NCBI GenBank assembly: GCA_035536995.1
Contig: DATLNB010000047.1
Span: forward strand, 1,047-65,046
Length of the DNA: 64,000 nucleotides
From: Chthoniobacterales bacterium
GTDB lineage: Bacteria > Verrucomicrobiota > Verrucomicrobiia > Chthoniobacterales > UBA10450
Direction: 5' to 3'
Shown: in pieces, positions 1 to 45,339 of the stretch
Layout: every line of letters begins with the position of its first letter
Position numbering within the stretch: position 1 is the first letter of the stretch
The notes under the pieces: generated by a model
What the model was told of the DNA's origin: nothing
Seen by the model: the letters and a program-made list of their open reading frames with translations, nothing else
Database searches by the model: none
Position numbers and translations under genes: made by a program

Positions 1-1
1 C

Positions 2-11547: not shown

Positions 11548-11585
11548 GGTTGACTGTTTAGCCGCACCACGAAACGTCCGTTTCG

Positions 11586-11876
11586 TTACGCCGAAAGGTA
11601 GCGCGCCAGGACCATTAGCCACGTCCCCAAGACCGCTGCGCCGATATAACCAATCAACAGGCCGACCAATGCCACAGACCTGGCCAGAGAACTCCGCCCG
11701 TCAGCGCGGTGACGAGCCAACGCGACGTGTCCGCAAATAATCGAAGGCACCGCTGTGAGCCCGAATGTCAGAATGGCGAATACGCCAAGTGTGAAGGTCC
11801 AGATCGGTAACGCGGAGAGTTCTTCCTCACGGTCTTCAATCAACCGCGCAGGGATGGCCTGACTGCTAGTCATCAT
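11586..11876 (-). CDS. Small membrane protein (DUF4190-like)
   Basis: Two hydrophobic helices with the GHVALARH motif typical of DUF4190-type proteins. Start moved to the internal ATG-ATG at 11871-11876; the longer listed ORF adds a basic, non-membrane extension. Confidence 0.55.
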   Translation of the reverse strand: MMTSSQAIPARLIEDREEELSALPIWTFTLGVFAILTFGLTAVPSIICGHVALARHRADGRSSLARSVALVGLLIGYIGAAVLGTWLMVLARYLSA

Positions 11877-11982
11877 GGTTCGGAGTGGACGGGGCGCGAC
11901 CGTTCTTTTGCAAAAAATCTCGCAGCGGAAATCACGCAACGGCCGCTTGTGAGTTCGTTCCCACCTCTGGTAAGAGAAGTGC

Positions 11983-12624
11983 ATGGAACCCGGCGAAACA
12001 GCGCGCGAGAAATCGAAGGAGGAGAGGGCGCCCTTCGTCTTCGGGGTGAGCGGTCACCGGGATCTGGTGGCGAGCGATATTCCCGAACTACGGCGGCAAC
12101 TCGATATCGTTTTCGCCCGTTTTTGCGCGGCCCATTCCGCCTGTCAGTTCCAACTCCTGACGCCGCTGGCAGAAGGCGCAGATCGCCTCGCGGCAGAAGT
12201 GGCCCTGGCGCACGGCATCAATTTATGGGTGCCCATGCCAATGGCCCAGGCGGACTACGAACGGGACTTTACTGCTCCCGAGTCGCTTGCGGAATTTCGA
12301 CGGCTGCTTGGCTTTGCGGAAAGAGTGTGGCGGATTGACAGCCCGGCGAATACCAGCCGCGACGATCAATACGCCGCGGTGGGCGATTTCATCGCGCGAA
12401 CGAGTCACGTCCTTGTTCTTTTTTGGGACGGTCAGCTGAACGAAATGAAAGGGGGCACCGGCTGGGTGAAGCTGCGGCGGGACCATTGGATCGGAAGCGC
12501 GGGAATGAATCCCGGCCCGCCTGGGTACGTGGGAACGATCCAGATTGTGACGCCGCGGGCGACGGGCGCAAAACGCGGGGAGAGACAGCCCCGGATCGAG
12601 GTTAAAGGCGAGCTCCCCGCTTAG
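11983..12624 (+). CDS. Stand-alone SLOG-like (LOG/DprA-fold-like) domain protein
   Basis: Motif series FGVSGHRD ... PLAEGADRLAAEVAL ... LWVPMP ... LFWDG...KGGTG. The same series occurs in the central domain of the convergent neighbour (VFSGHM ... AASGSDILFAEAML ... HLVLPWP ... VWDGYTGAPGGTG). The superfamily call is an inference from motif pattern. Confidence 0.6.
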   Translation: MEPGETAREKSKEERAPFVFGVSGHRDLVASDIPELRRQLDIVFARFCAAHSACQFQLLTPLAEGADRLAAEVALAHGINLWVPMPMAQADYERDFTAPESLAEFRRLLGFAERVWRIDSPANTSRDDQYAAVGDFIARTSHVLVLFWDGQLNEMKGGTGWVKLRRDHWIGSAGMNPGPPGYVGTIQIVTPRATGAKRGERQPRIEVKGELPA

Positions 12625-14531
12625 GTTCGTCCTGAGACCGCTGTGCGTTCGATGCTGTAGACGCGGAACAATCCGTAGCTTTTTGCCAGGGCAGTCGTGC
12701 CCACCAGATCACAGGTAAACCCTTTGGATTGATCCGCCGCGGCAAGAGCGGCGAACTCTTCGCTCGTGAATACTTCGCCTTCGTGAGTAATCGGCTCGAT
12801 CCTCGCGGCCCGACTGACGTGCGCTCCGGTAAAGGATATCTGTCTCACTACCGGATCGAAGTTAACGTAAACCGGGCCGGCGTGAATTCCGATGCGGATG
12901 TTAAGCTGATGAGGCAGACCTAGCTCTACCCAGTCAATCGAGGTAACCATGTCGCGTAGATCAAGCGCGAACCGGCCGGCATCTTCTACCCCGTTGAAAA
13001 CAAAGAAGAGGCCATCGCCCCACGTGTTGCAATTCACCGGAGCGGCCGGACTATCGGCGATCAAACGCGAAACGCGCTGATTGAATTGAGCGACGTACTT
13101 CGGGATGACCGTCTCCGGCAGCTTACTGTAGCCGACTACGTCCGCGAACATGATCGCCTTGATCTCCTGACGCCCCGAAGCGCGCACCCAGGCTTCGAAC
13201 TCGTCGTCGCTGTTACTCGCATCAACGTCGAATGTTTCAGTGTCGTGAAGCATGGAAGGGGGCTTCGTGGCAATCGGAACGACCTTTACCTGGGCGCCAT
13301 GATTTCTCCAATAGCGGACAAAGGATCCTGTCCCGCCAGGAGCCCCGGTATAGCCGTCCCAGACCGCGAGCGGCGTGATTTCCAGATCGAGGGAGCGCGC
13401 GAAAATCCGCGCCAGCCCGTTCATGGCGAGATTGCAGTATTCGAAACCGGTCGCGCTGCCCGGCATATAAAGCTGGCCAAGGATACGGATCGAAGCGGCG
13501 CGATCGAGGACGTTCTCAAATCGCTTTACCCAGGCGCCGTTACTCGCAAGCGCGACGCTTGTCCTGACGAACTCCTCGGCCGGCCACGGAAGGACAAGGT
13601 GGATGCTCGCGCCTCGTTCGAGCATTGCTTCCGCGAACAGGATATCCGAACCCGATGCAGCGCTCGAGAAACCGATCCCGGCGTTCATTGCCGCGAGTTG
13701 CTTCTCCAGAAGCGCCTTTATTTCGCCTTCCTTTTCCTGTGGGAAACGCGGGGTCCGCCGATCCGGCGCATCGATCATGTGCCCCGAGAAGACAACGAGC
13801 TTCGGGATAGGGAAACAGTCGTCGAAAAGGTCTGATCGTCCGTAGAGTTGCCGCGACAGGGTGCGGGCCTGCTTTCGAGTGGATGAGAAGGCGCGCAGGT
13901 TATCCTTCTCCATCCCGACCGCGTTGCGGTAAGCGCGTTTGGCTCCGTCGGCGTCGCCCAGAATAACCAAAGCTTCGGCGACGGTTGCCAGTTTCCAGTA
14001 ATCGTCCGGTTGCTTCTGGCAGATATCGAGAACCATGGTGGCGATCTGCTTCGCCTTGCTCGTCTCCTTGAGAAGTAAAGCTATGGTTGCCGCATTGATT
14101 CCTGGATAAGAGTCGGGCGGATGAACTTCAAAGGCCCGGTTGTAATGCTCGAAGGCCTGGCGGAGTGGCTCCTCGTCGGCAGGGTCGGCGCACCATTGGT
14201 CTTTGTAGGTCCTTCCAAGGATGCTGAGAGTTTCGCGATTGGTCGGGTCCTGTTCGATCAGAGCATTTAAAATTGCCTGGGCCCGGGCAGGGGAACCCAT
14301 CTGGGCGAGAGAGAGAGCCATTCTTTGTTGCAGCCAGGCATCGTCGGGATGGCTCTCGAGAGCGGCCCGCCCAGCGTCGTAGGCAGTCAGGAACTCACCG
14401 GCGGAAAGAGCGCGCTTAACGAACGAATGGACCGCCTTAATGTCGTCCATCCATTCCGTGCGGCGGCGCCAGAGCTCGTGGAGGGCAACGCTGGCGCTGG
14501 TGGCGTTATTGACTTCGGACAAATCGGACAC
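12621..14531 (-). CDS. Three-domain protein: TPR-like (DUF4071 / TRAF-binding-domain-like) - SLOG-like - class III adenylate/guanylate cyclase
   Basis: The N-terminus has GRTYKDQW ... YPGINAATIALL ... DYWKLATVAEALV. The centre carries the SLOG-like motifs (about 13272-13805). C-terminal cyclase motifs: IMFADVVGYSKL, NTWGDGLFFVF, IRIGIHAGPV, FTGAHVSRAARIE. Its stop overlaps the stop of 11983-12624 (TTAG at 12621-12624). Confidence 0.8.
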   Translation of the reverse strand: MSDLSEVNNATSASVALHELWRRRTEWMDDIKAVHSFVKRALSAGEFLTAYDAGRAALESHPDDAWLQQRMALSLAQMGSPARAQAILNALIEQDPTNRETLSILGRTYKDQWCADPADEEPLRQAFEHYNRAFEVHPPDSYPGINAATIALLLKETSKAKQIATMVLDICQKQPDDYWKLATVAEALVILGDADGAKRAYRNAVGMEKDNLRAFSSTRKQARTLSRQLYGRSDLFDDCFPIPKLVVFSGHMIDAPDRRTPRFPQEKEGEIKALLEKQLAAMNAGIGFSSAASGSDILFAEAMLERGASIHLVLPWPAEEFVRTSVALASNGAWVKRFENVLDRAASIRILGQLYMPGSATGFEYCNLAMNGLARIFARSLDLEITPLAVWDGYTGAPGGTGSFVRYWRNHGAQVKVVPIATKPPSMLHDTETFDVDASNSDDEFEAWVRASGRQEIKAIMFADVVGYSKLPETVIPKYVAQFNQRVSRLIADSPAAPVNCNTWGDGLFFVFNGVEDAGRFALDLRDMVTSIDWVELGLPHQLNIRIGIHAGPVYVNFDPVVRQISFTGAHVSRAARIEPITHEGEVFTSEEFAALAAADQSKGFTCDLVGTTALAKSYGLFRVYSIERTAVSGRT

Positions 14532-14624
14532 GGATTGAAGAACGCGGTCGCGCGAGAAGGTCTGCGCTCTATTAGCCGATGGCTCCGAAGCTGACCAGTA
14601 ATTTTTGCGATTGAAAAAAACGTG

Positions 14625-15836
14625 TTAGTGGCGGCAGCAATCGTGCGGACCCGATCCGTGATCGTGATCGCATTCATGATCGTGCTGGCCAGTCTCGTGG
14701 TCGTGGCCGCAATCGTGATCGTGATGATGGTGATGAGCCGACCACGATGGGAATGGATCGGCCAGGCGCTTCCAGGCTGCGGGGCCCCCAACCATTTCTT
14801 CATCGGTTAACAAACATCCATCCAACTCAGCGCGGACGACAGCGGGCTCCAGGTCCACGGTCATCAACGCGATCGCCTGCCGCCGGTCGCCGAACGGTTC
14901 CTGCCAGTGTTTCCGTGTCCCTGCCGACATTTCCCGGTCGCGCGTTTCTTGATCGCGCGTTGCCCACCACTCGCCCGCGGCGCCGCATTGGAGCTCGGTT
15001 CCCGCCAGGTTGAGACCGCCGACGAGGTCCATTCTCGTGGCGAGCCAGACAAAGCCTTTGGCCCGGAAAATCTGGCGCAGGTCGCTCTGGAGAAGGCGCC
15101 AAAGACGCTCCGGATGGAATGGTTTCCGTGCGTGATAAGCAAAGGCGGTCACCCCATGCGGATACGAGATGGGATCTGCTTGCTCCTCAATAAGCCGGCG
15201 CCATTCAGCCGCGTCGAGCACAGCGGCAAAGTCGAGTGTCTCTCCGCTTATCCTGGTGACCATGTCACTGGGGCCGTTTCCCCGAAGGTCAGGCAAGGTC
15301 GCCCGGGGATTGAGCGCGCCAAGGACGGCGCGGGCAAGGCTAACTTCGGAATCGTCCGCTGCTGGGTCGAGGAGGATGCTGCCGGCGAACTCGAGTTGCT
15401 CAACGATAAAGCAGACCGGCTGCGTCGAGGAACCTTTGCGGTCGGGCAGGAGCAAGTCCAGGACGGTTGTGGGGGCAATAGCCATCGCGGCGTGACTTAA
15501 TCGCACTGCGCCCGATGAGTTTTCGTTCTCGAGTGCAAACAAAGAGGCATAGGCCATGATCGGCTGGCCTTCGTCGCAGTGGACGATGAGGTGGTCGAGG
15601 CCACCATGCCCCGCGATGGTTTTGATCTGATGGCTGATCTCCGCCGGACTAGATGTCGTTAGGTGGAACAAGCGCGGGTCCGACTCCGCCGGGCCACCGG
15701 GGACTTGCGGGGTTAATAATCCGATCCGCGCGTTCTGGTTCCCGGCATGCCAAAGTTGCCTGGCCGCAGACGCGGCGGATGGTCCGCCAATAATAGACAC
15801 GGGCAACACGGCCGTGCCGTCGACAACGTCTTTCAT
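14625..15836 (-). CDS. CobW/COG0523-like protein with degenerate GTPase motifs, CobW_C-like domain and His/Asp/Cys-rich tail
   Basis: The C-terminal half resembles CobW_C (GVTAFAYHARKPFHPERLWRLL...IFRAKGFVWLA...DRRQAIALM). The tail is HHHHHDHDCGHDHETGQHDHECDHDHGSGPHDCCRH. The expected Walker A position reads VSIIGGPSAASAA. No CxCC or NKxD equivalents were recognised. Confidence 0.65.
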   Translation of the reverse strand: MKDVVDGTAVLPVSIIGGPSAASAARQLWHAGNQNARIGLLTPQVPGGPAESDPRLFHLTTSSPAEISHQIKTIAGHGGLDHLIVHCDEGQPIMAYASLFALENENSSGAVRLSHAAMAIAPTTVLDLLLPDRKGSSTQPVCFIVEQLEFAGSILLDPAADDSEVSLARAVLGALNPRATLPDLRGNGPSDMVTRISGETLDFAAVLDAAEWRRLIEEQADPISYPHGVTAFAYHARKPFHPERLWRLLQSDLRQIFRAKGFVWLATRMDLVGGLNLAGTELQCGAAGEWWATRDQETRDREMSAGTRKHWQEPFGDRRQAIALMTVDLEPAVVRAELDGCLLTDEEMVGGPAAWKRLADPFPSWSAHHHHHDHDCGHDHETGQHDHECDHDHGSGPHDCCRH

Positions 15837-15845
15837 CTTGCTGGG

Positions 15846-16745
15846 CTAGCTGGCCGGCGGTGGTTTCCCAGCCCGCGCAACCGGTGCCGACGGCGGCGGC
15901 TTTCCGGCGCGTGCCGCGGGCGCAGCTGGCGCATCCGCGGACACGACGTTGGGCGCGGTCACATCGCTGCGCCATGGAATAGCAAGCCGATGCAGAATGG
16001 ACTTGGCTTCCAATGGTGCGAGGTCAGGCATCTGCGAAACGAGCCGCGCGAGCAGAGCGCTCATGATAGGCGCCGCGAAACTGCTGCCAGTGACTTCCTT
16101 GGTCCCCTTGTTGTTCCAGGGAAGAGTAACGTCCACGCCGCGAGCAGCGAATTCAACGAGATGGCCGGGTTTGTAGAAGAAGGTGTGGTCCTCGTCGAAC
16201 CGCGCCATGTTAACTGTAACCACGCTGGGGAAGTAGCCGGGCCATTCGGGCGTGGTAAAGTCGTAGTTGTTACAGGCGGAGACGATGTGGATGCCTTTCA
16301 GGTAGGCTTCGTCGATCCACTCCTTGTATTGAAAGATGTGCTCGGACAACCCGCAGCCGAAGCTGCAGTTGAGGATGTGATAGCCCCGGTCAATCGCCTG
16401 TCTGACTCCTTCCCGAATAATGACAGTGCGCGACCCCAAATTCGCTCCGAGCACCCGAATGCTTCCGACCCGCGCGTCGGGTGCGATCCGCCGGATCACG
16501 GCTGTAACGGCGGTGCCGTGGCCGAAGACATCGGTCCCATCACCTTCTTTGACTTCGATTTGGACGCCGGCATCGACGACGTGCAAATCGTCAACGAGAG
16601 AAAGGCCCGACAGGGCCGGATGATCGGTCTCAACTCCGGAATCGATAACTGCGATGCGAACCCCCTTGCCGGTGCCCTCCTTTAAGGCGCGCCGTGCTTC
16701 CTCGAGGCGGAACGGGCTCGGATCCCGGGTCAGAGTCGATTCCAT
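15846..16745 (-). CDS. S8 (subtilisin-family) serine peptidase without a signal peptide
   Basis: Catalytic triad contexts AVIDSGV (Asp), GHGTAVTAV (His), GSSFAAPIM (Ser). No N-terminal hydrophobic segment. The C-terminus has a duplicated Pro-rich unit ARAGKPPPSAPV/ARAGKPPPAS. The start overlaps the GAF gene end by 16 nt. Confidence 0.85.
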   Translation of the reverse strand: MESTLTRDPSPFRLEEARRALKEGTGKGVRIAVIDSGVETDHPALSGLSLVDDLHVVDAGVQIEVKEGDGTDVFGHGTAVTAVIRRIAPDARVGSIRVLGANLGSRTVIIREGVRQAIDRGYHILNCSFGCGLSEHIFQYKEWIDEAYLKGIHIVSACNNYDFTTPEWPGYFPSVVTVNMARFDEDHTFFYKPGHLVEFAARGVDVTLPWNNKGTKEVTGSSFAAPIMSALLARLVSQMPDLAPLEAKSILHRLAIPWRSDVTAPNVVSADAPAAPAARAGKPPPSAPVARAGKPPPAS

Positions 16746-17353
16746 CCCACTGCAGTACCGAGAAGCCGGTAATCGATCAAGTCTCTTACGACCGCAGCGA
16801 TGGTTTGGATGGCGTTCAGCTCGGGCGGCCCAAAGCCCGACGGCGTCTCACCGGTCGCGGCAGCCTGGCCATCGTGAACCATGACGTCGAGGAGCTGGAC
16901 ACACGAAATAACGCCGCGGACCTCGTTCAAAAAATAGAGCGGCACCGCGATCATCGCGTAAGTCGTCTTCTGCAGCTTTTTATCGAGGGTGGCGCTGTGC
17001 TTGGCGTTCTTGAAGACCTGGTTTTCGACAAAGGCATGCTCGCTCGCCACAACCAGGCTAACGATGCCCTGACTGACCGGCTGCTTGAAGCCCATGATTT
17101 TTTCGGTGTTCGGACCGCTGTTGTAGGCCACCACCAAATGTTGCTTTTCGGAGTCAAGTAACCAGATGCTCCCTTCGTCCGCTGAAATTCGCGCGAACGT
17201 GTCTTTCAGAAGCTTGAGCAGCATCTCGTCGCAAATGCTGAGAAAATTTTCCGGATTGATCGCGGCTCCCAGCTTCGCGAGATGTTCCTGGAGCGCGGGG
17301 CGGAGCGCTGCCAGACGCTGTTCCGGCAGGAAATTTGCGCGACTGGCCTTCAT
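16730..17353 (-). CDS. GAF domain protein
   Basis: GAF-like core (EGSIWLLDSEKQHLVVAYNSG ... GIVSLV ... AMIAVPLYFLNEVRGVISCVQ). Overlaps its upstream gene by 4 nt and its downstream gene by 16 nt. Confidence 0.75.
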   Translation of the reverse strand: MKASRANFLPEQRLAALRPALQEHLAKLGAAINPENFLSICDEMLLKLLKDTFARISADEGSIWLLDSEKQHLVVAYNSGPNTEKIMGFKQPVSQGIVSLVVASEHAFVENQVFKNAKHSATLDKKLQKTTYAMIAVPLYFLNEVRGVISCVQLLDVMVHDGQAAATGETPSGFGPPELNAIQTIAAVVRDLIDYRLLGTAVGWNRL

Positions 17354-18450: not shown

Positions 18451-18475
18451 CGTCAATGATTTTGACCGCGCCGCG

Positions 18476-18549
18476 CGTGCCTGGAGGGATTCGAACCCCC
18501 AACCTGCTGATCCGAAGTCAGCTGCTCTATCCGGTTGAGCTACAGACAC
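18476..18549 (-). tRNA. tRNA-Arg (anticodon TCG)
   Basis: Hand-folded 74-nt cloverleaf: acceptor GTGTCTG/CAGGCAC, D arm GCTC-AACCGGATA-GAGC, anticodon arm GCTGA-CTTCGGA-TCAGC, variable loop AGGTT, T arm GGGGG-TTCGAAT-CCCTC, discriminator G. No encoded CCA. Confidence 0.9.
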
Positions 18550-18652
18550 TCGCGCGGTCAAGGTGTCGGAGCCAGCGAGAGCGTGCAAGTCACGAAGCGA
18601 TGCCGTAATCGGGAAATGGGCGCTGTCCTGTGCAATATTTCCACCAGAGCCT

Positions 18653-20071
18653 ATGTATCTCCGCCTCATTACCGGCATTTCTTTGTTTGCGCTGTCCTTC
18701 GTCCCGCGGGGACACTCGTACGTTTTGGAAGATGAACCGTGGACACCGAACCGGACCATCGTGATGCAATTGTCTCTGGGCGGGCCGAAAGCTTTGAACG
18801 ACGGGTTCAGCTCCTTCAACCAATCGGCACTCGACGCCCTGAATATCTGGAACCAGCACACTCCGCATCTTCAGTTCGCCGGAATAATGAATTCCCCGGT
18901 CCCCGTCAGTGGGACTGACGACCTGATGTCAGTCGTATTTTCTTCAACCTTCAACGGGGAGAGTTTCGGAACCGGGACGCTGGCCGTAACCCTGCTTTAT
19001 TCGCGGCAACCAGGGGTACGGGAACAGACCGACACCTACTTCAACACGGCGTATCCCTGGGATTCGTACCGCGGGCCGTTGCAGGCCGCGGAGGATTTTC
19101 ATCGGGTAGCGATCCACGAATTCGGACACACCCTCGGGCTCGATCATCCCAATCAGGCCGGACAAAACGTAAGTGCCATCATGAATTCGTCGGTCAGCAA
19201 CGTCGAAACCCTGCAACCGGACGACATCGCCGGAGCGCAGGCGCTCTCCGGGCCGCCCTATCAGACGTCGGTAAATGCGCCGGTTCTTCAAAACATTTCG
19301 ACACGCAGCTTTGTCGGGACCGGTGACAATGTCCTGATTGGCGGCTTCATTATTCAGGGGACGCAACCGGCGACCGTGATCCTTCGTGGGATTGGTTACT
19401 CCCTGAGCGCTTTCGGGATTACAAATGCGCTGGCCGACCCGGTGATCACGGTTTTCAACTCAAGCAACCAGCAGGTGGCGACGAACGACGATTGGTTTAC
19501 GAGCGCGAATGCCAGCACCATCGCGAGCTACCGGCTCGATCCGCCGAGTAGTATCGAATCGGCGCTCCTCCTTACTTTGAACCCCGGTTCCTATACCGCC
19601 GTCGTCCGCGGCTACTCGGATTCGAGCACGCCGGCCTCCACCGGCATCGCGTTGTTCGAGCTTTACGATCTCCACACGACCGGGGGCCGCGCCGGAAATG
19701 TTTCTACCCGGGGACGGGTGGGCACTGGCGGAAGCGTTTTGATTGGCGGATTCATCATTGGCGGAGGGCAGGCCAAGCAGGTCATCATTCGGGCGCTAGG
19801 GCCCAGCCTCGCAAATTCCGGCGTTGCTAACGCGATCGCCGATCCGACTCTTGAACTGCACAACGCGAATGGCGCGACGTTGCAGACGAACAACAATTGG
19901 CAGGAGAGTCCGGACGCCGGCACGATATCGAGCCAGGGCTTCGCGCCGGCCGATGCGCGCGAGTCTGCTCTGCTCGCCACCCTCAATCCCGGCAGCTTCA
20001 CCGCGGTCGTCCAGAACGCGAACGGGGTGACCGGCGTAGGGTTGGTGGAGGTCTACGACTTAAGCCCCTGA
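18653..20071 (+). CDS. Secreted matrixin-like (M10) zinc metalloprotease with two C-terminal ~125-aa repeat modules
   Basis: Signal peptide from the ATG at 18653 (MYLRLITGISLFALSFVP). Zinc site HEFGHTLGLDHP followed by AIMNS (Met-turn). Two tandem modules at 19283-19672 and 19694-20062. Confidence 0.85.
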   Translation: MYLRLITGISLFALSFVPRGHSYVLEDEPWTPNRTIVMQLSLGGPKALNDGFSSFNQSALDALNIWNQHTPHLQFAGIMNSPVPVSGTDDLMSVVFSSTFNGESFGTGTLAVTLLYSRQPGVREQTDTYFNTAYPWDSYRGPLQAAEDFHRVAIHEFGHTLGLDHPNQAGQNVSAIMNSSVSNVETLQPDDIAGAQALSGPPYQTSVNAPVLQNISTRSFVGTGDNVLIGGFIIQGTQPATVILRGIGYSLSAFGITNALADPVITVFNSSNQQVATNDDWFTSANASTIASYRLDPPSSIESALLLTLNPGSYTAVVRGYSDSSTPASTGIALFELYDLHTTGGRAGNVSTRGRVGTGGSVLIGGFIIGGGQAKQVIIRALGPSLANSGVANAIADPTLELHNANGATLQTNNNWQESPDAGTISSQGFAPADARESALLATLNPGSFTAVVQNANGVTGVGLVEVYDLSP

Positions 20072-20081: not shown

Positions 20082-22385
20082 TCAGGGCAGATTGTAAACC
20101 TCGGCAAGAGCAACGCCGGTGCTGGATCCTTTCCCGCGAACGATCGCCGTATAATTCCCGGGCGCGAGAGACGTGAGGATTGCTGCTTCATCGGGATTGC
20201 CCGGGGCAAGTCCGGCCGTCACCAGCTCAGCCGACCCGGAATCCGTGATCCAACTGTCATTCGTGCGGAGGGTGGCGCCATTGCTGTCGTGCAATTCAAG
20301 AACCGGATCGGCTAAGGGGTCGGCAATCCCGGCACTGCTCAACGATGGACCAAGCGCGCGTGTCGCGATGTGCCCGCTGGAGCCAGTGCCGACGATAAAT
20401 CCGCCGATGAGGACGTCGTCGCCAGTGCTGACAAAGCCCCGTGTGCTAATGTTCGCGACCATCGAATTTGCGGCCTGAACGAGATCGTACATCTCGACGA
20501 GACCGACGCCGGTCGCGTTATTTTTCCCCCGGACAATCGCGGTGTAAGCCCCGGGCAACAGGGTTTGGACAAGGGCGGCTTCCTTGTTGTTGTCAGGCGC
20601 GATTCCATTTGACCTAAGCTCCGCGGCTGCGGCGACGTCGCTCTCCCAATCGTCGTTCGTGGCAACGATGGAACCATCCGGGCCATGAAGCTCGAGCAAG
20701 GGATCAGCCAGGACGCCGCTGAGGCCGGCGTTGGTCAACGACGGGCCAATGCCGCGGATCGCGATCCGTTTTGGTTCCGCGCCGGTGATGATGAAACCGC
20801 CTATCAAAACCCCTTCGCCACTGAGCACCCGCATTCGCGTGGAGACGTTGATAAGAGACGACTGCTCGCCCGTGAAAATATTGTCATAGACGTAGCCCGC
20901 AATTTTTCGGCCTTGCTCGATACCCGCGGTTTTGTCGAACGCCCAATGAATTCCAAGATAGATGCGGCTCTGGCCATTCTCTTCCTCGGCCTCGGACAGG
21001 GAATTAAAATGGCGCGGCTTGAGGTCGCGGATGTTTCCGCCGTTATCGACGGTCACGCCGTTAAATTCGTCCGACGTAAACGTGAACGCGATATCGTCCG
21101 TGTGGTAGTAGCGCCGGAGGGTTTCGAACAGGGCTCCGCCGAAGGTCGCGTGCCCCGATGGATAGGCGGGGAAGGGAGGCGTGAAGTTAGGTCCGGTCAG
21201 ATTGCTCGCAGGAGCGCCAAGGGGATGGAAGGTGGGATCCCCAATCGTGGCCAGGTTACCATCGCCGGCGCCGGAAGGACCTGTCCCGGCATCGGATTCG
21301 CGAATGCCGGTAACGGGCCGCCAGAATTGATAGAAGAATTTCGATTCCCAGGAGGCGATTCCAGCATCAGCCATGGAAACGTTAACCAGCGCGAGAAGGC
21401 GGGCCATCTCGAGCGCGTTCCGGTCCGTGCCTTTTTGCTTCGCGATATGCATCGTGATCTGATTGTAAAGCCGCGGGGGCGCGCACAGGCTGGGTGTTCC
21501 ATCGTAAGCCCAGAAGATCCCCATTTCCGTCTGGTCGGAGGTCCGAACCGTCGGCGTATTGATGCCATCACCTCCGAGTGCCTTCACTTCGTTGTAGGCA
21601 ACGGTGTATTCTACGCTGTCCAAAGCGGGGGGCGCCGGTGTCCGAAACTGATTGGCCGATTGTAGGACAAAGGGCGTGACCTGGCTCCAATTCGCGCCTA
21701 GGGCCAGGGGGATCTGGCTGATCGGGTCCTGGCGCCATTTGCCGGCTTCGTTACTCGGGAGGAACTCCTGGCCCACGCGCGGCTCGGCATGCGCTGAACC
21801 ATCGTTCGCACGCAGATTAAGGATGCCCGCCGCGGTCTGATGTCCGAGTTCAATTCCCTCAGCTTTGGCGGAGCCGGAATCGATGTTAGCGAGGTCGTCA
21901 GCGAGCGCCTGGTCGAAGGCAGCGGCTTGGGACGGGAACATGGCGGTCAACGTATCCCTTGCCGCCTGGGCGATGGCCGCGCTCATGGAAGCCGTCTTCA
22001 CCGGGCTAATGGTGCTGAAACTTTTGTAGCCCCCCGCAATCGCATTCACGCTGTCGAACATCGCGATGTGCACGATCGCGATCGCACGGCTGGACCGCGC
22101 CGGCCCGACTTGTTCGCCAAATATACGCGGGTCACCCGGGGGAACCGGGGTGTGATCGAGACCGCTCGCGTCGATTGCGATCTGATTCCACCGGGCAAGA
22201 ACATCCGCCGGGTCATCACCGCCGTGAGCGGGCACCGCGGGGGAGGTAACGCGCGCTGCCGCTTCGAATTGCGGTCCAAAAAAATCCTGAAGATTTCGTG
22301 TCCGCGGTGAGGCCGAGGAAGAGAACGTAAGCGCAATCGTGACGCCAGAAAGAGCGCTAATCGCTTTTCGGAATCGAATATTCAT
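20082..22385 (-). CDS. Secreted PAP2-superfamily / vanadium-haloperoxidase-like protein with two C-terminal ~125-aa repeat modules
   Basis: Signal-like N-terminus from the ATG at 22383-22385 (MNIRFRKAISALSGVTIALTFSSSA). Motifs PAYPSGHATFGGA and SRIYLGIHWAFD. Modules at 20481-20852 and 20085-20456. Confidence 0.75.
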   Translation of the reverse strand: MNIRFRKAISALSGVTIALTFSSSASPRTRNLQDFFGPQFEAAARVTSPAVPAHGGDDPADVLARWNQIAIDASGLDHTPVPPGDPRIFGEQVGPARSSRAIAIVHIAMFDSVNAIAGGYKSFSTISPVKTASMSAAIAQAARDTLTAMFPSQAAAFDQALADDLANIDSGSAKAEGIELGHQTAAGILNLRANDGSAHAEPRVGQEFLPSNEAGKWRQDPISQIPLALGANWSQVTPFVLQSANQFRTPAPPALDSVEYTVAYNEVKALGGDGINTPTVRTSDQTEMGIFWAYDGTPSLCAPPRLYNQITMHIAKQKGTDRNALEMARLLALVNVSMADAGIASWESKFFYQFWRPVTGIRESDAGTGPSGAGDGNLATIGDPTFHPLGAPASNLTGPNFTPPFPAYPSGHATFGGALFETLRRYYHTDDIAFTFTSDEFNGVTVDNGGNIRDLKPRHFNSLSEAEEENGQSRIYLGIHWAFDKTAGIEQGRKIAGYVYDNIFTGEQSSLINVSTRMRVLSGEGVLIGGFIITGAEPKRIAIRGIGPSLTNAGLSGVLADPLLELHGPDGSIVATNDDWESDVAAAAELRSNGIAPDNNKEAALVQTLLPGAYTAIVRGKNNATGVGLVEMYDLVQAANSMVANISTRGFVSTGDDVLIGGFIVGTGSSGHIATRALGPSLSSAGIADPLADPVLELHDSNGATLRTNDSWITDSGSAELVTAGLAPGNPDEAAILTSLAPGNYTAIVRGKGSSTGVALAEVYNLP

Positions 22386-22591
22386 AGAGGTGCGCTCTTC
22401 GGGCCGCCGGGGGGGAAGGGACACGGAGCGAGTATTGGTATTTCTGGGCATATTCGAAAAACTCCGCGCAAGGCAAGCTTATAGACGAAACTCTCAAATT
22501 TTTGCGGGGGACGGCCGGGGGTGGCCGCACTTGAAAAAGCTTAATCGGATTGACGTCGGAGGGATGCAGGTCGAGTGAGAGCGGGTGCTTT

Positions 22592-23077: not shown

Positions 23078-23174
23078 GCGGTAAATAACCGGGCCGCAGA
23101 AGAGGCTCCGCCATTTTTAGCTTGAGTGCCCGGGCGGGAGCAATCACGCTGAAAACGTGAGAGCTACGTCCGTC

Positions 23175-23930
23175 ATGGAGAGCCCGACGCCTCTGACCCA
23201 CTTTGCCACCACGCGCTGGAGCCTGATTCGGCAACGCTATCTTCCCGGGGAAAATCGCAGCAAAATCGACCCGGGCCTCGCGCAGCTTTGCCAGATTTAT
23301 TGGCGCCCAATTTTCACTTTCATCTACCGGCGGGGATACTCGGCTCCCGATGCGCAGGACCTGACGCAGGATTTTTTTCTGATGCTGCTGGAAGGCAAGC
23401 TCCTGGAAATGGCTGATCCAGAACGGGGCCGTTTCCGTTCCCTCCTTTTGCGATCGCTAAAAAACTTTTTGATCGACGCAGCGGTGAAGCGACGCCGGCA
23501 CAAGCGCGGAGGGCAGGTCCAGTTTGTTTCGTGGGAGAAATGGATGGCCGATGCCCCGCCTCAGTTGTCACTGCCGTCCAGCGCGGTGGAATCGTCGCCG
23601 CCGGAAGCGCTGTTTGACGCCGGTTGGGCGGCGGCCATCGCAGAAGAAGCGTTGCGCCGACTCCGCTTGGAATGCGAAAGCAAGGGCCGGCGCCGGGTTT
23701 ACGAAGTCCTGCATACCTACCTTACGGCTGAGCGGACTGAGACCTGTTATGAAGGACTGTCGCGGGCTCTCGGAGTTCCCGAAGCTTCAGTCAAGAGTCT
23801 GCTTCACCATTTCCGGACGCGCTATCGCACGCTTCTTCGCGAGGAGATCGCCAAGACCGTCGAGTCGGAGGCGAACGTAGACGAAGAAATCCGTTATCTT
23901 TGCGCCACCCTCAGCGCCGCCGCCGGGTAG
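23175..23930 (+). CDS. ECF sigma factor, ECF43-like (Ser/Thr-kinase-associated type)
   Basis: N-terminal ATTRWSLI motif; region 2 (DAQDLTQDFFLMLL); region 4-like C-terminus. Immediately followed by a Ser/Thr kinase gene, with no anti-sigma gene. An alternative GTG start lies at 23157. Confidence 0.8.
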   Translation: MESPTPLTHFATTRWSLIRQRYLPGENRSKIDPGLAQLCQIYWRPIFTFIYRRGYSAPDAQDLTQDFFLMLLEGKLLEMADPERGRFRSLLLRSLKNFLIDAAVKRRRHKRGGQVQFVSWEKWMADAPPQLSLPSSAVESSPPEALFDAGWAAAIAEEALRRLRLECESKGRRRVYEVLHTYLTAERTETCYEGLSRALGVPEASVKSLLHHFRTRYRTLLREEIAKTVESEANVDEEIRYLCATLSAAAG

Positions 23931-26690: not shown

Positions 26691-27008
26691 ATGAATCTCA
26701 AGAATTGGGACAACATGACAAACGACGAGAAGCTTGATCGCCTTACTTCTGTTCTGACCCGGGCTGGCGCCGACGCCGACTTTCGGGGCCGATGCCTTGC
26801 ATCGGCGGACTCGGCCAAGGCAGCAGTGAGCGAGGTTGGGGAAATCGAATTTCCGCCGGATTTTCGAGTTCAGTTCCTTACTCCGGAGGAGCGTTTGAAA
26901 ACGCTTTTGCTGGCGGTGCCCGACCTAATCCCCACAGAAAACGGGCGGGCTGAGGTTCGCCAGGCCGAGGACTACCAGACCTGTACCTATACGATGTGGC
27001 GGACTTGA
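26691..27008 (+). CDS. Candidate RiPP precursor with NHLP/Nif11-like leader
   Basis: ADADFRGRCLASADSAKAAVSEVGEIEFPPDFRVQFLTPEERLKTLLLAVPDLIP follows the NHLP leader pattern (D..F...LL......A...E.G...P....V.V.E.....L.LVLP). The short C-terminal tail is TENGRAEVRQAEDYQTCTYTMWRT. Starts 12 nt after the kinase stop. Confidence 0.55.
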   Translation: MNLKNWDNMTNDEKLDRLTSVLTRAGADADFRGRCLASADSAKAAVSEVGEIEFPPDFRVQFLTPEERLKTLLLAVPDLIPTENGRAEVRQAEDYQTCTYTMWRT

Positions 27009-27017
27009 GCGAACAGC

Positions 27018-28505
27018 TCAGCGCGAGAGGGCGTTGCGAATAGCTGCGGTTAACTCCGGAACCATTGCCGGCGTCTCGGCCGGCATTGATTCGTCGGTTC
27101 GACGGATGAAGTAGGGGATATCGAGCCTGAGTAGCGATTCGATTTCGGCCTTCTTCACCGCTGAACCCGCGGTCCCTCGTGTGCACAAGCGCTCGACGAG
27201 CTTCCGGCGCGCCGCGGATGAACGAAGCGCGCCGGGCTCGATCGAAGCTTGCCGGATTTCGATGTAGCGGACTGTCGCCCAGTATATCCAGCGGCGCTTC
27301 CGAGAACGGATGCGACGGACGCGCCGGCAGAAACTGGCATTCCGCTGATGGGTGCCCAGGATGCATTTCCACCCAGCCGCAAACCCCTTAACGATTGCCT
27401 CTTTGAAATCCGCCGCCTGCAAGATGGCTCCTTTGACACGGGGTAAGTGAATTCCGCTTTTTGTTTCGGCCAGGACGCTACTGCGCGATTGTAAGCTCCG
27501 CCGGTTTTGGCTCGGAAAGAACCCGGTGCGGAGGAGGACCGTAACTGGCGATTGAGTCTTTGTTACAGCCGAGACGTGCCAGAGCGCATCGAGATCTACG
27601 ACGACCGGTTGTTCACCCGCCGCGATCATGTTCTGGCGATGACAATCGACAGCTTTCAGAAGATAGGCGGCGACAATCGTGCCACCGACCCGCTGATAAA
27701 AGCGGCGGGCGGCGGCGCGGCTCGAGCATTGAGTCGGGGCTATGTCTTCCATCCAGCAATACCCTCTCCTTTGCAGAACCGGCGCCGCGCGCAAGGCCGG
27801 ATGGAAACCGTGGCGGTTCATCCAATTCAAAAGTGAATGCCATTCCGCTTCGCCCTGTCGCCGCCCCGGTTTGTAGATGATCGAACTGTTTTCGAAGATG
27901 ACTCGAACGACACTGCGACCGCAAAAATGTGGATCTGATAATCCGAGCTCCACGTCGTCAATTTTTCCCAGCGGCTTCTGGTCAAAAAACATCTGGGAAA
28001 GCACAGCCCGGTCTCTCGTCGCGCGGCCGATTACTTCCAGGAGGTGATCGCGCCATTGCCGAATTGTTAGCGCCCAAAGCTGCGCGAGGACGGGGTATCT
28101 CCGAAAGAGTGCCTGCAACCTGTGCCAGGGCTCGTGTTGCAAAAACATCTGCTCTCGTTTGGCCGGTGCCATGTCACCACGCCCCAACGCCTGTGTCGCG
28201 AGGCAAAAACTGGCCCATTCCAGGTCAAGGCTCGGCCGGGTAAGCCAGCGTAAACGCCCCCGTAAATCTTGTCTGATCCTTGCCTTCGCTTTTTCTGAGA
28301 CCCACCTTAAGCAACCCGTTCGGGAGTTATTAAGTTCCTGCCATCCGTAACTCACCCCGCTTTCACAGAGCCGTGCCAGTGCTCCTGCTTTCGCCGATGT
28401 GAAGCTGGCTCGCTCCAGGACGGCTAGCATTTTGCGAAGCTCTGGTTTGAAGGCGGCGGGCGCCGCAGTCACGATGGCTTTGATCCCAGGGGAGGAGATA
28501 GCCAT
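27018..28505 (-). CDS. Stand-alone LanM-type dehydratase (kinase/lyase) domain protein, DUF4135-like, no LanC cyclase domain
   Basis: Matches the remembered LanM N-terminal pattern throughout: SDPHFCGRSVVRVIFENSSIIYKPGRR, RRGYCWMEDI, FYQRVGGTIVAAYLLKAVDCHRQNMIAAGEQPVVVDLDALWH, R.IRSRKRRWIYWATVRY, EIESLLRLDIPYF. The protein ends after ~495 aa, so there is no room for a LanC-like domain. Confidence 0.75.
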   Translation of the reverse strand: MAISSPGIKAIVTAAPAAFKPELRKMLAVLERASFTSAKAGALARLCESGVSYGWQELNNSRTGCLRWVSEKAKARIRQDLRGRLRWLTRPSLDLEWASFCLATQALGRGDMAPAKREQMFLQHEPWHRLQALFRRYPVLAQLWALTIRQWRDHLLEVIGRATRDRAVLSQMFFDQKPLGKIDDVELGLSDPHFCGRSVVRVIFENSSIIYKPGRRQGEAEWHSLLNWMNRHGFHPALRAAPVLQRRGYCWMEDIAPTQCSSRAAARRFYQRVGGTIVAAYLLKAVDCHRQNMIAAGEQPVVVDLDALWHVSAVTKTQSPVTVLLRTGFFPSQNRRSLQSRSSVLAETKSGIHLPRVKGAILQAADFKEAIVKGFAAGWKCILGTHQRNASFCRRVRRIRSRKRRWIYWATVRYIEIRQASIEPGALRSSAARRKLVERLCTRGTAGSAVKKAEIESLLRLDIPYFIRRTDESMPAETPAMVPELTAAIRNALSR

Positions 28506-28538
28506 GCTCTGCCGTGAGGCTCAATGACGCCAGCGTCA

Positions 28539-30059
28539 CTACTGCAAATGCCGGCTGGGGAATTGGAAGCGCCGCCAATGCGCTTCGCATTCAGGTAACA
28601 GCCTTTCGTCACCGACGAGTTGAACCACGCGAATCAGTGAATCGACCGCCCGACATGACCCGCCCGGGAAAAACCACTGCGGCAAATTCCAGTCTGGCCC
28701 CATGATATTAAGATAGCTGTCCGGGTCGGCTTCAATCGCCCCCTCGATGACGTCCGCAACAATAGAACTACCCACCGGGCCCAAAGTCAGTCCTTCTTCT
28801 CTAAGCTCTGCTTCCTTGAGGATGTAATAGAAAAGGGGCGTGTTATCCTCGAGCCTGTTTCGGCGAAGTACGCTTCCGGATTCATTCGAGGTATCGGTTA
28901 TTAACTCGGCCTCACTGAGACGGTCTTCTGCCTTTATCCTGCCTTGGGCGATAAGAGCATTGGCGGCTTCCTGGCCCGAGACCAGACCTGCCCGGGCCCC
29001 TCGAAGCAAGGTGCGGACAGGAAGGTTGGATGGGTCCGGCGATTCGCGATGGTTAGCGAGACGGATCGTGCCCGGGGCGAGCCCGTGCATCGACTGGCTA
29101 ACCGAAGTATCTATAAAGGAACTTGAAGCCTGGGGACCCGATGTAGGCAGACCATCGAGAAAGGTACCCCATTCAACCAGGTAATCGTCAGGCAGGGGTG
29201 CGGCCGTTTGCCCCATTGCCATAAGCTCATCAATTACCACCCGCTTGTTGCGACAATTCAACCGATAGGCATTGCGCACCATGCTATGCCCGAATCGAAA
29301 CGCCGCGAGAGAGAATTCTATCGGAATCGGAAACTGCGTTCCTGTTTTCTGAATTATCCGGTTCTGTCGGCTATGCCAGACATCATTGCAGACCACCCGC
29401 GGAAGGTAGTCGTGCCGTACAATCCATTGGTAATGCCAGGAGACCAGCCGGCGCGCCTTCGCAAACAGAGTCCCTCCTCCTAAAGTCTCACCGAGCTCCG
29501 CGAGGCCTGGATTTGTTTGTAGTTGTTCTATCGCGACGTTGTGAAATTTGAGGAAGAGGACGTGGAGCTGGCGGAGTAACACATTGTCGAGGTTACGGCG
29601 GTCTTCCATGTCGCCGACGAGGAGGCGCCCCGCCTTCAGTGGCAGGTCCCGCTGGTATTCTCCCGGGGCGGTCGCACCGATCTTAAAAGTTTCGGCATCG
29701 GGTTCGCCTTCATACAGGTAAGGTGAAATGGCCGGCCCGCCCCCATAAACGTGGTCGAGATCCAGGGTCGGCGTCCTGAAGTTTGGTGTTTCCTCCGGTT
29801 CAGTATAAGGACCTGCCAGCGGCGTGGGGTCATGGGTGAGATCATGACCGACAAATTGCCCAAAGTAGGTGTAGCCGATGCGCGGCGTCAGGGTGCCCTC
29901 GCGCTCGACCTTATACCTCATCGAGTTTCCCAGGGTGATAAGCTTCCTTTCGTGGTCCCTCGTGACAGGGTGAGCCGGCCTGCCAAGGAGGCGCGTATAA
30001 TACCCCCTGGGCTCTGCCTTAGCAGGACGCGCGTGACTGCACATCCCTCGTGAATCCAT
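28539..30059 (-). CDS. Animal-type heme peroxidase family protein (peroxidase-cyclooxygenase superfamily)
   Basis: Distal-His motif YFGQFVGHDLTHD; proximal-His motif AAFRFGHSMV; HVLFLKFHN. No obvious signal peptide. Starts 5 nt downstream of the DUF885 gene stop, and 33 nt separate its stop from the DUF4135 gene start. Confidence 0.8.
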   Translation of the reverse strand: MDSRGMCSHARPAKAEPRGYYTRLLGRPAHPVTRDHERKLITLGNSMRYKVEREGTLTPRIGYTYFGQFVGHDLTHDPTPLAGPYTEPEETPNFRTPTLDLDHVYGGGPAISPYLYEGEPDAETFKIGATAPGEYQRDLPLKAGRLLVGDMEDRRNLDNVLLRQLHVLFLKFHNVAIEQLQTNPGLAELGETLGGGTLFAKARRLVSWHYQWIVRHDYLPRVVCNDVWHSRQNRIIQKTGTQFPIPIEFSLAAFRFGHSMVRNAYRLNCRNKRVVIDELMAMGQTAAPLPDDYLVEWGTFLDGLPTSGPQASSSFIDTSVSQSMHGLAPGTIRLANHRESPDPSNLPVRTLLRGARAGLVSGQEAANALIAQGRIKAEDRLSEAELITDTSNESGSVLRRNRLEDNTPLFYYILKEAELREEGLTLGPVGSSIVADVIEGAIEADPDSYLNIMGPDWNLPQWFFPGGSCRAVDSLIRVVQLVGDERLLPECEAHWRRFQFPSRHLQ

Positions 30060-33495: not shown

Positions 33496-34806
33496 TTAGT
33501 CGCGATCCAGCTCGTAGACTTCGACCAGCGCGATGCCGGTCCCGTTGTTCACGCCGTCCACCACGGTCGTGTAAGTGCCGGGCTCGAGCCGGATCAGGAT
33601 AGCGGCTTCCTGCGCATCGGTCGGAGCGATCGTGGTAGCGATCACTTCGTTCGCATTGGCCGCACTGCCCCAATTATCGTTCTGGCGAAGAAGGGTGGTG
33701 TTCTGGAACAGCTTAAGTTGTGGGTCAGCCAGGGCTGGGCTCACACCTCGCGCCGTCAAAGAAGGTCCGAGCGCGCGGATTAGCACGAGTTTCGGTCCGC
33801 CCCGGATAATAAAGCCGCCGATTAGCTGGCCCTGGCCGGTATTCACGAACCCGCGGGTCGCGATATTCGCCAGGCGATTCTCGGAGGATTCCTGCGGCGC
33901 ACGGAAGCGGAAGACGACGCCGTTCAATGTGAAGTCGCCGATGAGCAATCCATGACTGCGGGTGAGATGGCCGGTCACGGTCTCACCGGTCACGAAGGTC
34001 AACGTAAAGGTCGCGCTGAAGCTATGATCGTTATCGTCCAGGTGATGATCTTCTCTTTCATCGCTGTCCTCGTTGCAGTTGTTACCCGGGCCGCTGCTGT
34101 CGCAGTCGTCATCATCACCATCGCCGTCGTGATCGGGCGTGCTTGCGCTGGCAAGTGCGAACGATGGAGAAGGACTCGGCGAAGCCGATGGGCTGGGCGA
34201 GGCGGACGGGCTTGGTGAAGCCGATGGGCTTGGAGATGCAGATGGACTTGGAGATGCAGATGGGCTCGGCGAAGCAGACGGTCCAGGAGAAGGCGAAGGC
34301 GACGCGCTTACCGTTACCGTGCCGAATCCGCCGAGAACGTTCGAACCCTGTTTGGCGATCATGAAAATGTTCTTTTGAGCATCGATCACGAAGCGGACGT
34401 CGAAGGAAACGCCGGTGCTGGAGGTCGCGATGGCGGAAAATCGGCCACCCAGGTGCTCCGATTCGCCGAACGTTCCCGCCCGATTGGCCGTCACCGTCTG
34501 GTTCAGCAGCGTGGCGGTAACGAAGCCGGAATTTACCGTGCCGGTGATTGTGCCTGCGGGGGTCGTCGTCAACGTGAAGGTCCCGTTATCGTTTATGGTC
34601 GCGCCGCCGAGGTAGGCCTGGTGGCCGGCGGTATCGAACACGTAAGTCGAAAGCGCCCGGTTACCCTGGACAAAGAAAACGATCCGGCCGCCTCCAGCCA
34701 GATTGCCTTCGTAAAAACCGCGCCTGCTTTCCTCCGCGAAGCCCGGGACCGCCAAAGCGATCAGGAGCGCGCAGACCTGTAAAGATCGAGACATCCATTG
34801 TTTCAT
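33496..34806 (-). CDS. Secreted protein: N-terminal beta-rich domain - (SPSPSA)n linker - acidic Asp/His/Cys region - one C-terminal ~125-aa repeat module
   Basis: Signal peptide (VCALLIALAVPGFA). SP-rich linker encoded at 34162-34305, acidic region at 34024-34140. The module at 33499-33873 has the same motifs as in the M10 protease and the haloperoxidase-like protein. Confidence 0.8.
   Translation of the reverse strand: MKQWMSRSLQVCALLIALAVPGFAEESRRGFYEGNLAGGGRIVFFVQGNRALSTYVFDTAGHQAYLGGATINDNGTFTLTTTPAGTITGTVNSGFVTATLLNQTVTANRAGTFGESEHLGGRFSAIATSSTGVSFDVRFVIDAQKNIFMIAKQGSNVLGGFGTVTVSASPSPSPGPSASPSPSASPSPSASPSPSASPSPSASPSPSASPSPSPSFALASASTPDHDGDGDDDDCDSSGPGNNCNEDSDEREDHHLDDNDHSFSATFTLTFVTGETVTGHLTRSHGLLIGDFTLNGVVFRFRAPQESSENRLANIATRGFVNTGQGQLIGGFIIRGGPKLVLIRALGPSLTARGVSPALADPQLKLFQNTTLLRQNDNWGSAANANEVIATTIAPTDAQEAAILIRLEPGTYTTVVDGVNNGTGIALVEVYELDRD
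34162..34305 (-). repeat. Coding tandem repeat (18-nt period) encoding SPSPSA units
   Basis: The plus strand reads ...GGCGAAGCCGATGGGCTG/GGCGAGGCGGACGGGCTT/GGTGAAGCCGATGGGCTT/GGAGATGCAGATGGACTT... These imperfect 18-nt units lie inside CDS 33496-34806. Confidence 0.8.
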
Positions 34807-37368: not shown

Positions 37369-37384
37369 GCGCGCGGCGCGGGCG

Positions 37385-37457
37385 GGTGACCGACGGGACT
37401 CGAACCCGCAACAGCCAGAATCACAATCTGGAGCTCTACCATTGAGCTACGGTCACC
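37385..37457 (-). tRNA. tRNA-His (anticodon GTG) with encoded G-1
   Basis: Hand-folded: G-1, acceptor GTGACCG/CGGTCAC, D arm GCTC-AATGGTA-GAGC, anticodon arm CCAGA-TTGTGAT-TCTGG, variable loop CTGTT, T arm GCGGG-TTCGAGT-CCCGT, discriminator C pairing with G-1. Confidence 0.9.
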
Positions 37458-44881: not shown

Positions 44882-44907
44882 GTGCCGTCCTGTGGTAAAC
44901 TCGGCGC

Positions 44908-45334: not shown

Positions 45335-45339
45335 AAAAT

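Follow-up and report, generated by a model that had tools for sequence, protein, structure and literature searches.

In a 64-kb window of DNA from a Chthoniobacterales bacterium (the whole stretch analysed, 64,000 nucleotides of contig DATLNB010000047.1) we examined a cassette of five genes built around a small protein of 105 residues. Genes for a sigma factor, a Ser/Thr kinase and the small protein follow one another on the forward strand and face genes for a peroxidase and a DUF4135 protein, in that order of transcription, on the reverse strand (Table 1). The kinase stop lies 12 nucleotides before the small gene, no terminator was seen between the two, and hence the small gene probably shares a transcript with the sigma and kinase genes; a generic promoter and terminator scan of the window performed at chance level. 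The small gene and the DUF4135 gene are convergent, with their stops 9 nucleotides apart, and 33 nucleotides separate the stop of the upstream peroxidase gene from the start of the DUF4135 gene.

Table 1. Positions in the window of the cassette genes, the small protein tail and other features
Feature	Position	Strand	Evidence
ECF-like sigma-70 family factor, 257 aa, first cassette gene	23157..23930	+	Pfam Sigma70_r2 E=9e-6
Ser/Thr protein kinase, 913 aa	23937..26678	+	Pkinase E=2e-46 and TPR families (Pfam)
Small NHLP-clan protein (by remote homology), 105 aa	26691..27008	+	766 homologues, profile matches
Tail motif Y95-Q-T-C98-T99-Y100-T-M-W103 of small protein	26973..26999	+	Homologue conservation
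T99 codon, candidate DUF4135 target	26985-26987	+	Tail motif position
Predicted stand-alone LanM-type dehydratase (DUF4135), 495 aa	27018..28505	-	Pfam DUF4135 E=4e-73
Predicted peroxidase-cyclooxygenase superfamily heme peroxidase, 506 aa	28539..30059	-	An_peroxidase E=6e-17
M10 metalloprotease, apparently secreted	18563-20071	+	Shared C-terminal module
PAP2/vanadium-haloperoxidase-like protein, apparently secreted	20082-22451	-	Shared C-terminal module
Protein with Pro/Ser-rich linker, apparently secreted	33496-34806	-	Shared C-terminal module
RNase P RNA (class A)	44907-45339	+	

The cassette proteins

The 105-residue protein has 766 homologues at E<=0.01, the best 120 of which match it over the full length at 73-80% identity. 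In the same search P0001 is 100% identical to VM940_09385, by which the window corresponds to the record of a Chthoniobacterales (Verrucomicrobiota) MAG (metagenome-assembled genome). Among 22 orthologues the gene shows pN 0.14 vs pS 0.75 (dN/dS ~0.07), which is strong purifying selection. On the strength of these homologues and this selection the open reading frame (ORF) is a real gene. No model for the family was found in Pfam or NCBIfam, and the best Pfam match of the protein is Frankia_peptide (E=0.14). Its kinship to the nitrile hydratase-like leader peptides (NHLP) emerged from profile comparisons. The family profile retrieved P0306 from among 1.8 billion representatives; this is a bona fide NHLP precursor (56 bits on TIGR03793) with a GG motif and a Ser/Thr/Cys core, and hhalign of the close-family alignment (A2) against it gave a probability of 96.9% with E=1.6e-10. 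Among 50 distant relatives of the small protein there were 17 sub-threshold NHLP matches, P0306 alone being above the cutoff. The profiles also matched a solved NHLP leader, 9CJX_A ('NHLP leader peptide family natural product'), at E=8e-7 for the broad family (A5) and 3e-3 for the close family (A2). By this profile-profile and profile-PDB evidence only, residues ~8-89 are placed in the NHLP clan at the level of remote homology.

An AlphaFold2 (AF2) model of the small protein has a helical domain with predicted local distance difference test (pLDDT) values of 87-95 for residues 1-70, and a tail with values of 49-72. The predicted architecture is a folded domain (residues ~6-85) followed by a flexible C-terminal tail. 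The confident helical domain fits the published NHLP leaders, which are folded and whose structured nucleus is contacted by LanM dehydratase domains (PMC12537861). The small-protein profile also matched, at its positions ~28-66, two giant proteins, P0277 (3667 residues, 12 repeats) and P0286 (2178 residues, 6 repeats). It further matched tandem two-domain small proteins (P0249, P0251, P0254 and P0257) with a separate aromatic tail on each domain, and one tandem version (L068) sits between a kinase gene and a convergent peroxidase gene.

In close homologues the tail has the consensus AEDYQTC[TS]YxxWR[STA], and C98, Y100, W103 and R104 are invariant in the best 120 of the 766 homologues while positions 101-102 are free. 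Homologues at 25-45% identity retain [YFH]-x-x-C-[TS]-Y-x-x-[WY]. The most conserved tail residues are the Tyr and the Trp/Tyr; these are typical peroxidase substrates, which we count in favour of the peroxidase acting on the tail. We also considered the tail (C-T-Y-x-x-W, CCYPVW) as a vestige of the metal claw of nitrile hydratase alpha (VCTLCSCYPW). This idea was dropped, since the claw presumably aligns via NHLP to residues ~75-81 (AVPDLIP), ~20 residues before Cys98.

The DUF4135 protein aligned to the lanthipeptide synthetases LicM2 (6ST5, E=3e-35) and CylM (5DZT, E=1e-12). A Foldseek search with its AF2 model (predicted template modelling score, pTM, 0.84) returned these two structures alone, with template modelling scores for query and target of TMq 0.75/TMt 0.42 for LicM2 and TMq 0.72/TMt 0.42 for CylM. 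The high TMq together with a TMt of 0.42 indicates that the match covers the dehydratase half only. With the alignment end extended, residue 495, the last of the protein, corresponds to residue ~550 of LicM2. The NCBIfam LanM model TIGR03897 gave 259.7 bits vs a cutoff of 304, with the best stretch at positions 7-274 of 932. D190, H192, K211, D286, H288, N291, D303, R404 and T410 are invariant in the family and are equivalent to CylM D252, H254, K274, D347, H349, N352, D364, R506 and T512, respectively, nine residues that CylM requires for phosphorylation and phosphate elimination (PMC4550811). The four CylM elimination residues (D252, H254, R506 and T512) are all among them.

No LanC-like motif or domain, and no WCxG/CHG motif pair, was found in the 64-kb window. 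Furthermore, there was no LanC-like gene among the Pfam-annotated flanking genes of related loci, and the intervals between their four genes are too tight for an extra gene. The protein has what defines the N-terminal half of LanM, that is, a DUF4135 domain with phosphotransfer and elimination residues, and has neither the LanC-like zinc cyclase of the C-terminal half nor a whole-protein score above the cutoff. Judged from its sequence and model, it is a complete LanM dehydratase half without LanC. The public record gives this gene only 384 residues. In the 495-residue ORF, however, homologues and invariant residues start near residue 42, and for this reason the start codon of the deposit probably lies too far downstream.

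The peroxidase scored 61.7 bits with An_peroxidase (PF03098; cutoff 25), and its GQFVGHD (distal) and FRFGHS (proximal) motifs are conserved in its family. The invariant residues are Q67, H71 and D72 of the distal GQFxGHD, the catalytic R154 and the proximal FRFGH257, so that the features of the peroxidase-cyclooxygenase superfamily (model match, distal Gln-x-x-x-His, Arg and proximal His) are all present. Compared with lactoperoxidase (LPO) and myeloperoxidase (MPO) the family profile gave a weak match (E=2e-3), and phmmer of the single sequence against the PDB gave none. The protein is predicted to be a divergent animal-type heme peroxidase; that of the window has no export signal. With the weak profile alignment as a guide, we take the heme-ester sites of MPO and LPO to be the Asp before the distal His and the Glu after the catalytic Arg. 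The window peroxidase has Gly70 and Asp157 at these positions and is not of the MPO/LPO type with covalently bound heme.

The three genes from the small protein to the peroxidase had been proposed, from a reading of this DNA that used no database searches, as a candidate locus for a peptide that is ribosomally made and then post-translationally modified (RiPP). This original prediction was exact in its three ORFs and in the 9- and 33-nucleotide spacings, and its identification of a LanM dehydratase lacking LanC and of a heme peroxidase was borne out by the DUF4135 and An_peroxidase matches, the lack of any LanC-like domain and the conservation of the two His motifs.

The sigma factor matched Sigma70_r2 above its cutoff and TIGR02937 below it (38.8 bits, cutoff 42.9). 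The kinase has an N-terminal Hanks domain with HRDLKPGN and DFG motifs, one hydrophobic helix at residues ~355-378 (LAAALSVVALMAAIAIGWQVY) and a C-terminal TPR region, which from this topology would be extracytoplasmic. Pairs of an extracytoplasmic function (ECF) sigma factor and a Ser/Thr kinase are a known regulatory unit (PMC7826278; PMC13147305). A conserved block precedes the sigma gene in 23 loci, and across these 23 loci no common motif was found that would represent a shared ECF-type promoter before the sigma and peroxidase genes.

Conservation and covariation of the cassette

The five-gene order is found in 25 GTDB species genomes, all of them Chthoniobacterales or 'Spartobacteria' metagenome-assembled genomes (MAGs), and the block is intact wherever the contig allows. 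The sigma gene is directly upstream of the kinase gene in every locus with enough flank (53-81% identity), all loci examined have the kinase gene upstream of the small gene, and the peroxidase gene adjoins either the small gene or the DUF4135 gene in every one. The unit is five genes.

Such an order could be inherited synteny within one verrucomicrobial clade and functionally meaningless, and the flanking DUF885 and M28 genes are indeed also syntenic within Chthoniobacterales. However, six other sequence clusters (L029-L033, L061-L066 and the P0352 contig) repeat this order and orientation, with identities that have fallen to 30-45% for the small protein, 29-42% for DUF4135 and 30-48% for the peroxidase. 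The only distant loci with long flanks, L029 and L063, have TatC/NUDIX/FolB genes on one side and a sigma-54 gene on the other (with DciA also in L063), unlike the flanks in the window. Since the distant loci keep the order and these flanks differ, the adjacency points to a functional module. Insertions within the close clade, moreover, fall outside the block only, and we give meaningless synteny next to no credence.

In a derived clade the small proteins end in C-C-[YF]-x-x-[WF], as opposed to C-[TS]-Y-x-x-[WY]. The cassettes of this CC type run from sigma through kinase to small gene, with a convergent peroxidase gene and without DUF4135 (27 metagenomic loci, found with a six-sequence alignment, plus L068 and L070). 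When the sequences are grouped into clusters below ~50% identity, DUF4135 is present in 7/7 C[TS]Y clusters and in 0/5 CC clusters. Most CC-type small proteins have an N-terminal Sec-like signal and their peroxidases have twin-arginine (Tat) leaders (MKRRHFLK..., MISRRKFFQ..., MISRRRFL...); the C[TS]Y-type pairs are all without both Sec and Tat signals. One locus, L070, has a CC tail and a signal on neither protein, and still lacks DUF4135.

Given that the peroxidase and the small protein are kept together in the clade without DUF4135, and that their Sec and Tat signals co-vary, these two proteins are predicted to share a compartment and to form the invariant core pair. DUF4135, by the same comparison, is an accessory: its presence goes with a hydroxyl residue behind the Cys and, as judged from L070, not with the compartment.

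The Tat-exported peroxidases (L034-L058) keep the acidic heme-ester residues (QFIDHD, DPRQDEN) at the positions where the cytoplasmic Chthoniobacterales enzymes have Gly and Asp, which suggests covalent heme, and perhaps halide oxidation, in the periplasmic variant only. Two genes upstream of the sigma gene in L070 (291-899) is a gene for an AhpC/Redoxin peroxiredoxin, an isolated finding hinting at some connection with peroxide.

With a strong match to the N-terminal half of LanM and an NHLP-clan precursor, the locus might be taken for a split LanM, an ordinary class II lanthipeptide pathway with its LanC encoded elsewhere and with the peroxidase as an unrelated neighbour. We consider this very improbable. 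LanC was not found in the window or among the Pfam-annotated genes of the related loci; a single Cys adjacent to a single conserved Thr/Ser makes a normal ring impossible; the C39 transporter and the GG motif are lacking; and across clusters below 50% identity the invariant neighbour is the peroxidase, not a cyclase. A LanC-like gene nearby in orthologous loci, and with it a split LanM, would also have spoken against the original prediction, and the conservation of the neighbourhood that it required extends beyond close relatives, to the 25 species and to the six clusters at 30-45% small-protein identity. Its three genes are indeed linked, but they are part of a unit of five that includes sigma factor and kinase. 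Similarly, the dehydratase and peroxidase that it paired are both present, but it is the peroxidase that is the small protein's invariant partner, with DUF4135 as the accessory.

A putative tail-modifying module

Collectively, we think it fairly probable that the locus is one instance of a conserved module of five genes for post-translational modification of the tail of a small NHLP-clan protein. The most likely chemistry, from the residues conserved in tail and enzymes, would be dehydration of Thr99 combined with a reaction in which the peroxidase oxidises or cross-links the Tyr/Trp/Cys tail. Much as LanM dehydratase domains bind NHLP leaders, the DUF4135 enzyme would dock on the NHLP-like domain; it would phosphorylate Thr99 with ATP and then eliminate the phosphate to give dehydrobutyrine. 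With H2O2 the heme peroxidase would oxidise Tyr100 and Trp103, perhaps also Tyr95 or Cys98, leaving the tail cross-linked or oxygenated. Addition of Cys98 to the adjacent dehydro residue would be uncatalysed, the cyclase being absent; such a thioether might be the counterpart of the vicinal Cys-Cys pair in relatives without DUF4135, a speculative rationale for the exchange of Thr and Cys. The sigma/kinase pair may either control the module or read out its product, which could be a peptide released from the tail or a modified tail that stays on the small protein.

A number of observations weigh against tail modification as we propose it. The NHLP (TIGR03793) and Nif11 (TIGR03798, PF07862) models of Pfam and NCBIfam gave zero matches to the small protein, even at E<=10, and Foldseek of its AF2 model against the PDB gave none either. 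The tail is conserved, with no hypervariable core, which is atypical of a RiPP, and some relatives carry GEY or GLY, so that the Cys is not universal. A conserved GG-type cleavage motif was not found in the small-protein alignments, and neither a C39 peptidase or other protease nor an ABC exporter for the tail was seen in the window ORFs or the annotated related loci; the combination that marks a functional NHLP/Nif11 precursor, a GG/GA motif with a C39-ABC exporter or protease nearby, is thus missing. The small gene sits in the sigma/kinase transcription unit, apart from the enzyme genes, and the TPR region is expected to be extracytoplasmic whereas the small protein of the window has no export signal. 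In a rough neighbour-joining tree the CC clade comes out as monophyletic, and the covariation of Thr with DUF4135 may therefore be one event and not several independent ones. P0299 (CTY) and P0288 (CC) look like sisters in this tree. Finally, metagenomes or MAGs are the source of every sequence.

The NHLP/Nif11-like leader of the original prediction consequently holds at the level of the clan (hhalign and 9CJX) but not as a direct match to either model, a null result that the prediction had itself named as speaking against it. Its RiPP-type locus holds as regards the RiPP-like context of an NHLP-type substrate, but not as regards the 'core', which is conserved, or the cleavage motif, protease and exporter, of which none was found. 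A classical secreted RiPP is only one reading of the locus. In view of the conserved tail, the lack of cleavage motif, protease and exporter, and the probable co-transcription with sigma factor and kinase, the modified small protein may itself be the product, and a part in sigma/kinase signalling is conceivable. If the tail is modified as proposed, the constant presence of a sigma factor and a receptor kinase speaks for a use in signalling or stress adaptation and less for an antibiotic pathway.

These same features can be read in another way, with the small protein as a regulatory or structural partner and not a substrate. It might belong to the kinase/sigma pathway, as an adaptor or anti-sigma-like component, or serve the peroxidase as a subunit, an inhibitor or an electron donor, and the peroxidase and DUF4135 would be stress-response genes under sigma control. 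The close, terminator-free junction of kinase and small gene, the conservation that spans the whole small protein, the failure to find a protease, exporter or cleavage motif in the window and annotated loci, and the precedent of ECF sigma/kinase pairs as a regulatory unit (PMC7826278) are all in keeping with a partner. A peroxidase partner would also share the compartment, and hence the compartment match does not separate substrate from partner. What a partner leaves unexplained is that one tail residue (Thr/Ser vs Cys) tracks a Ser/Thr dehydratase, and that DUF4135 has retained the elimination residues R404 and T410. On balance we regard a mere partner as unlikely.

A further alternative keeps the small protein as substrate but makes DUF4135 a kinase only, so that Thr99 would stay phosphorylated, as a stable regulatory mark, and would not be dehydrated. 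The kinase residues are intact, the cyclase that would use a dehydro residue is lacking, and a Ser/Thr kinase and a sigma factor provide a context of phospho-signalling. In contrast, the equivalents of CylM D252, H254, R506 and T512 are all invariant, and excised LanM dehydratase domains do dehydrate (PMC10676384), which makes a kinase-only enzyme quite improbable.

The modification of the tail that we favour may be taken a step further, to the doubtful but conceivable proposal that the module is a signalling device gated by peroxide, and that it is the first RiPP-like class to have an animal-type heme peroxidase as its defining enzyme. The peroxidase would use H2O2 to cross-link or oxygenate the Tyr/Trp/Cys tail; in the cytoplasmic versions DUF4135 would prime the tail beforehand by dehydrating Thr99. 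The TPR Ser/Thr kinase would sense the modified tail, as a ligand or regulator, and so switch the ECF-like sigma factor. Alternatively, the tail might become a peptide-derived redox cofactor.

If tail modification is correct, His-ligated heme peroxidases would join, as a new class, the enzymes that modify ribosomal peptides and small proteins, and the LanM dehydratase half would act by itself on just one residue of an NHLP-type substrate. Three natural variants offer themselves for comparison: cytoplasmic Thr with DUF4135, cytoplasmic Cys-Cys, and periplasmic with Sec and Tat signals. The hosts are abundant uncultured soil Verrucomicrobiota and relatives. Lanthipeptide mining usually looks for a LanC-type cyclase (PMC11251773), and a cassette without LanC is therefore likely to escape such screens.

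Surrounding features and known systems

Three apparently secreted proteins of the window, the M10 metalloprotease, the haloperoxidase-like protein and the protein with the Pro/Ser-rich linker (Table 1), have in common a doubled C-terminal module of ~90 residues, N[VI]STRG..TG..VLIGGFI..G...IRA.GPSL...LADP.LEL...ND.W. The haloperoxidase-like gene is three genes upstream of the cassette, with a DUF892-like ORF between, and is found there in several close relatives and not in distant ones. A tRNA-Arg(TCG) (18475-18549, reverse strand) and a tRNA-His(GTG) (37384-37456, reverse strand) bracket a stretch of ~19 kb that contains the cassette; a tRNA-flanked island was nevertheless rejected, as the composition is uniform and the flanks are syntenic in the clade. 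Two ORFs, 53114-53389 (reverse strand) and 53420-55015 (forward strand), have a third-position GC content (GC3) of 0.46-0.51 vs ~0.70 elsewhere in the window and may be foreign DNA or non-coding sequence; the second, the only one of the pair scanned, had no Pfam match. Positions 1-16800 are rich in signalling genes, with two hybrid histidine kinases (GAF and receiver domains), CHASE2- and TPR-S-linked adenylate/guanylate cyclases and a TPR-CHAT protein, together with a CobW-like GTPase and a subtilase.

We found no description of the combination of small protein, DUF4135 and heme peroxidase in the full-text literature, and no RiPP class defined by an enzyme of the peroxidase-cyclooxygenase superfamily in the literature searched. 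The front of the cassette resembles ECF43 EcfP/PknT, EcfK/PknS and the groups ECF59-62, 217, 267 and 283, in which a sigma gene is likewise followed by a transmembrane Ser/Thr kinase gene; a small-protein or peroxidase partner of these groups is not reported in PMC7826278 or PMC13147305.

The class II synthetases that act on NHLP/Nif11 precursors (ProcM with the prochlorosins, DprM-DprE2 and OspM-OspA) have the same DUF4135 fold with all catalytic residues, and their precursors the same folded NHLP-clan N-terminal domain. In contrast to these systems, the cassette lacks LanC, a GG site and a C39 exporter, its substrate would offer one Thr/Ser beside one Cys in a conserved tail and not many Ser/Thr/Cys, and a heme peroxidase is an obligatory partner. 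The dehydrazole enzyme CcaM ('LanMbC') is alike in using DUF4135 for dehydro residues that are not made into lanthionine; its DUF4135 is fused to a zinc-less class III cyclase needed for activity, works with a YcaO enzyme, depends on azoles in the core and is independent of the leader (PMC10676384). In the cassette, unlike CcaM, DUF4135 stands alone, without YcaO, and is paired with a peroxidase.

Peroxidase-made cross-links and cofactors in proteins include the Met-Tyr-Trp adduct of KatG, the sulfilimine made by peroxidasin, the Tyr coupling of thyroid peroxidase and the tryptophan tryptophylquinone formed by MauG. These are the closest chemical precedent, since they too act on Tyr, Trp, Met or Cys of a specific protein, but they come without a dedicated NHLP-like substrate gene, a dehydratase or a sigma/kinase cassette. 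Among RiPPs, cytochrome P450s cross-link Tyr, Trp and His side chains a few residues apart in biarylitides, cittilins and atropopeptides. The oxidative coupling by a heme enzyme would be the same as that proposed here, although the P450s are thiolate-ligated and use O2 with a reductant, whereas the enzyme of the cassette would be His-ligated and would presumably use H2O2.

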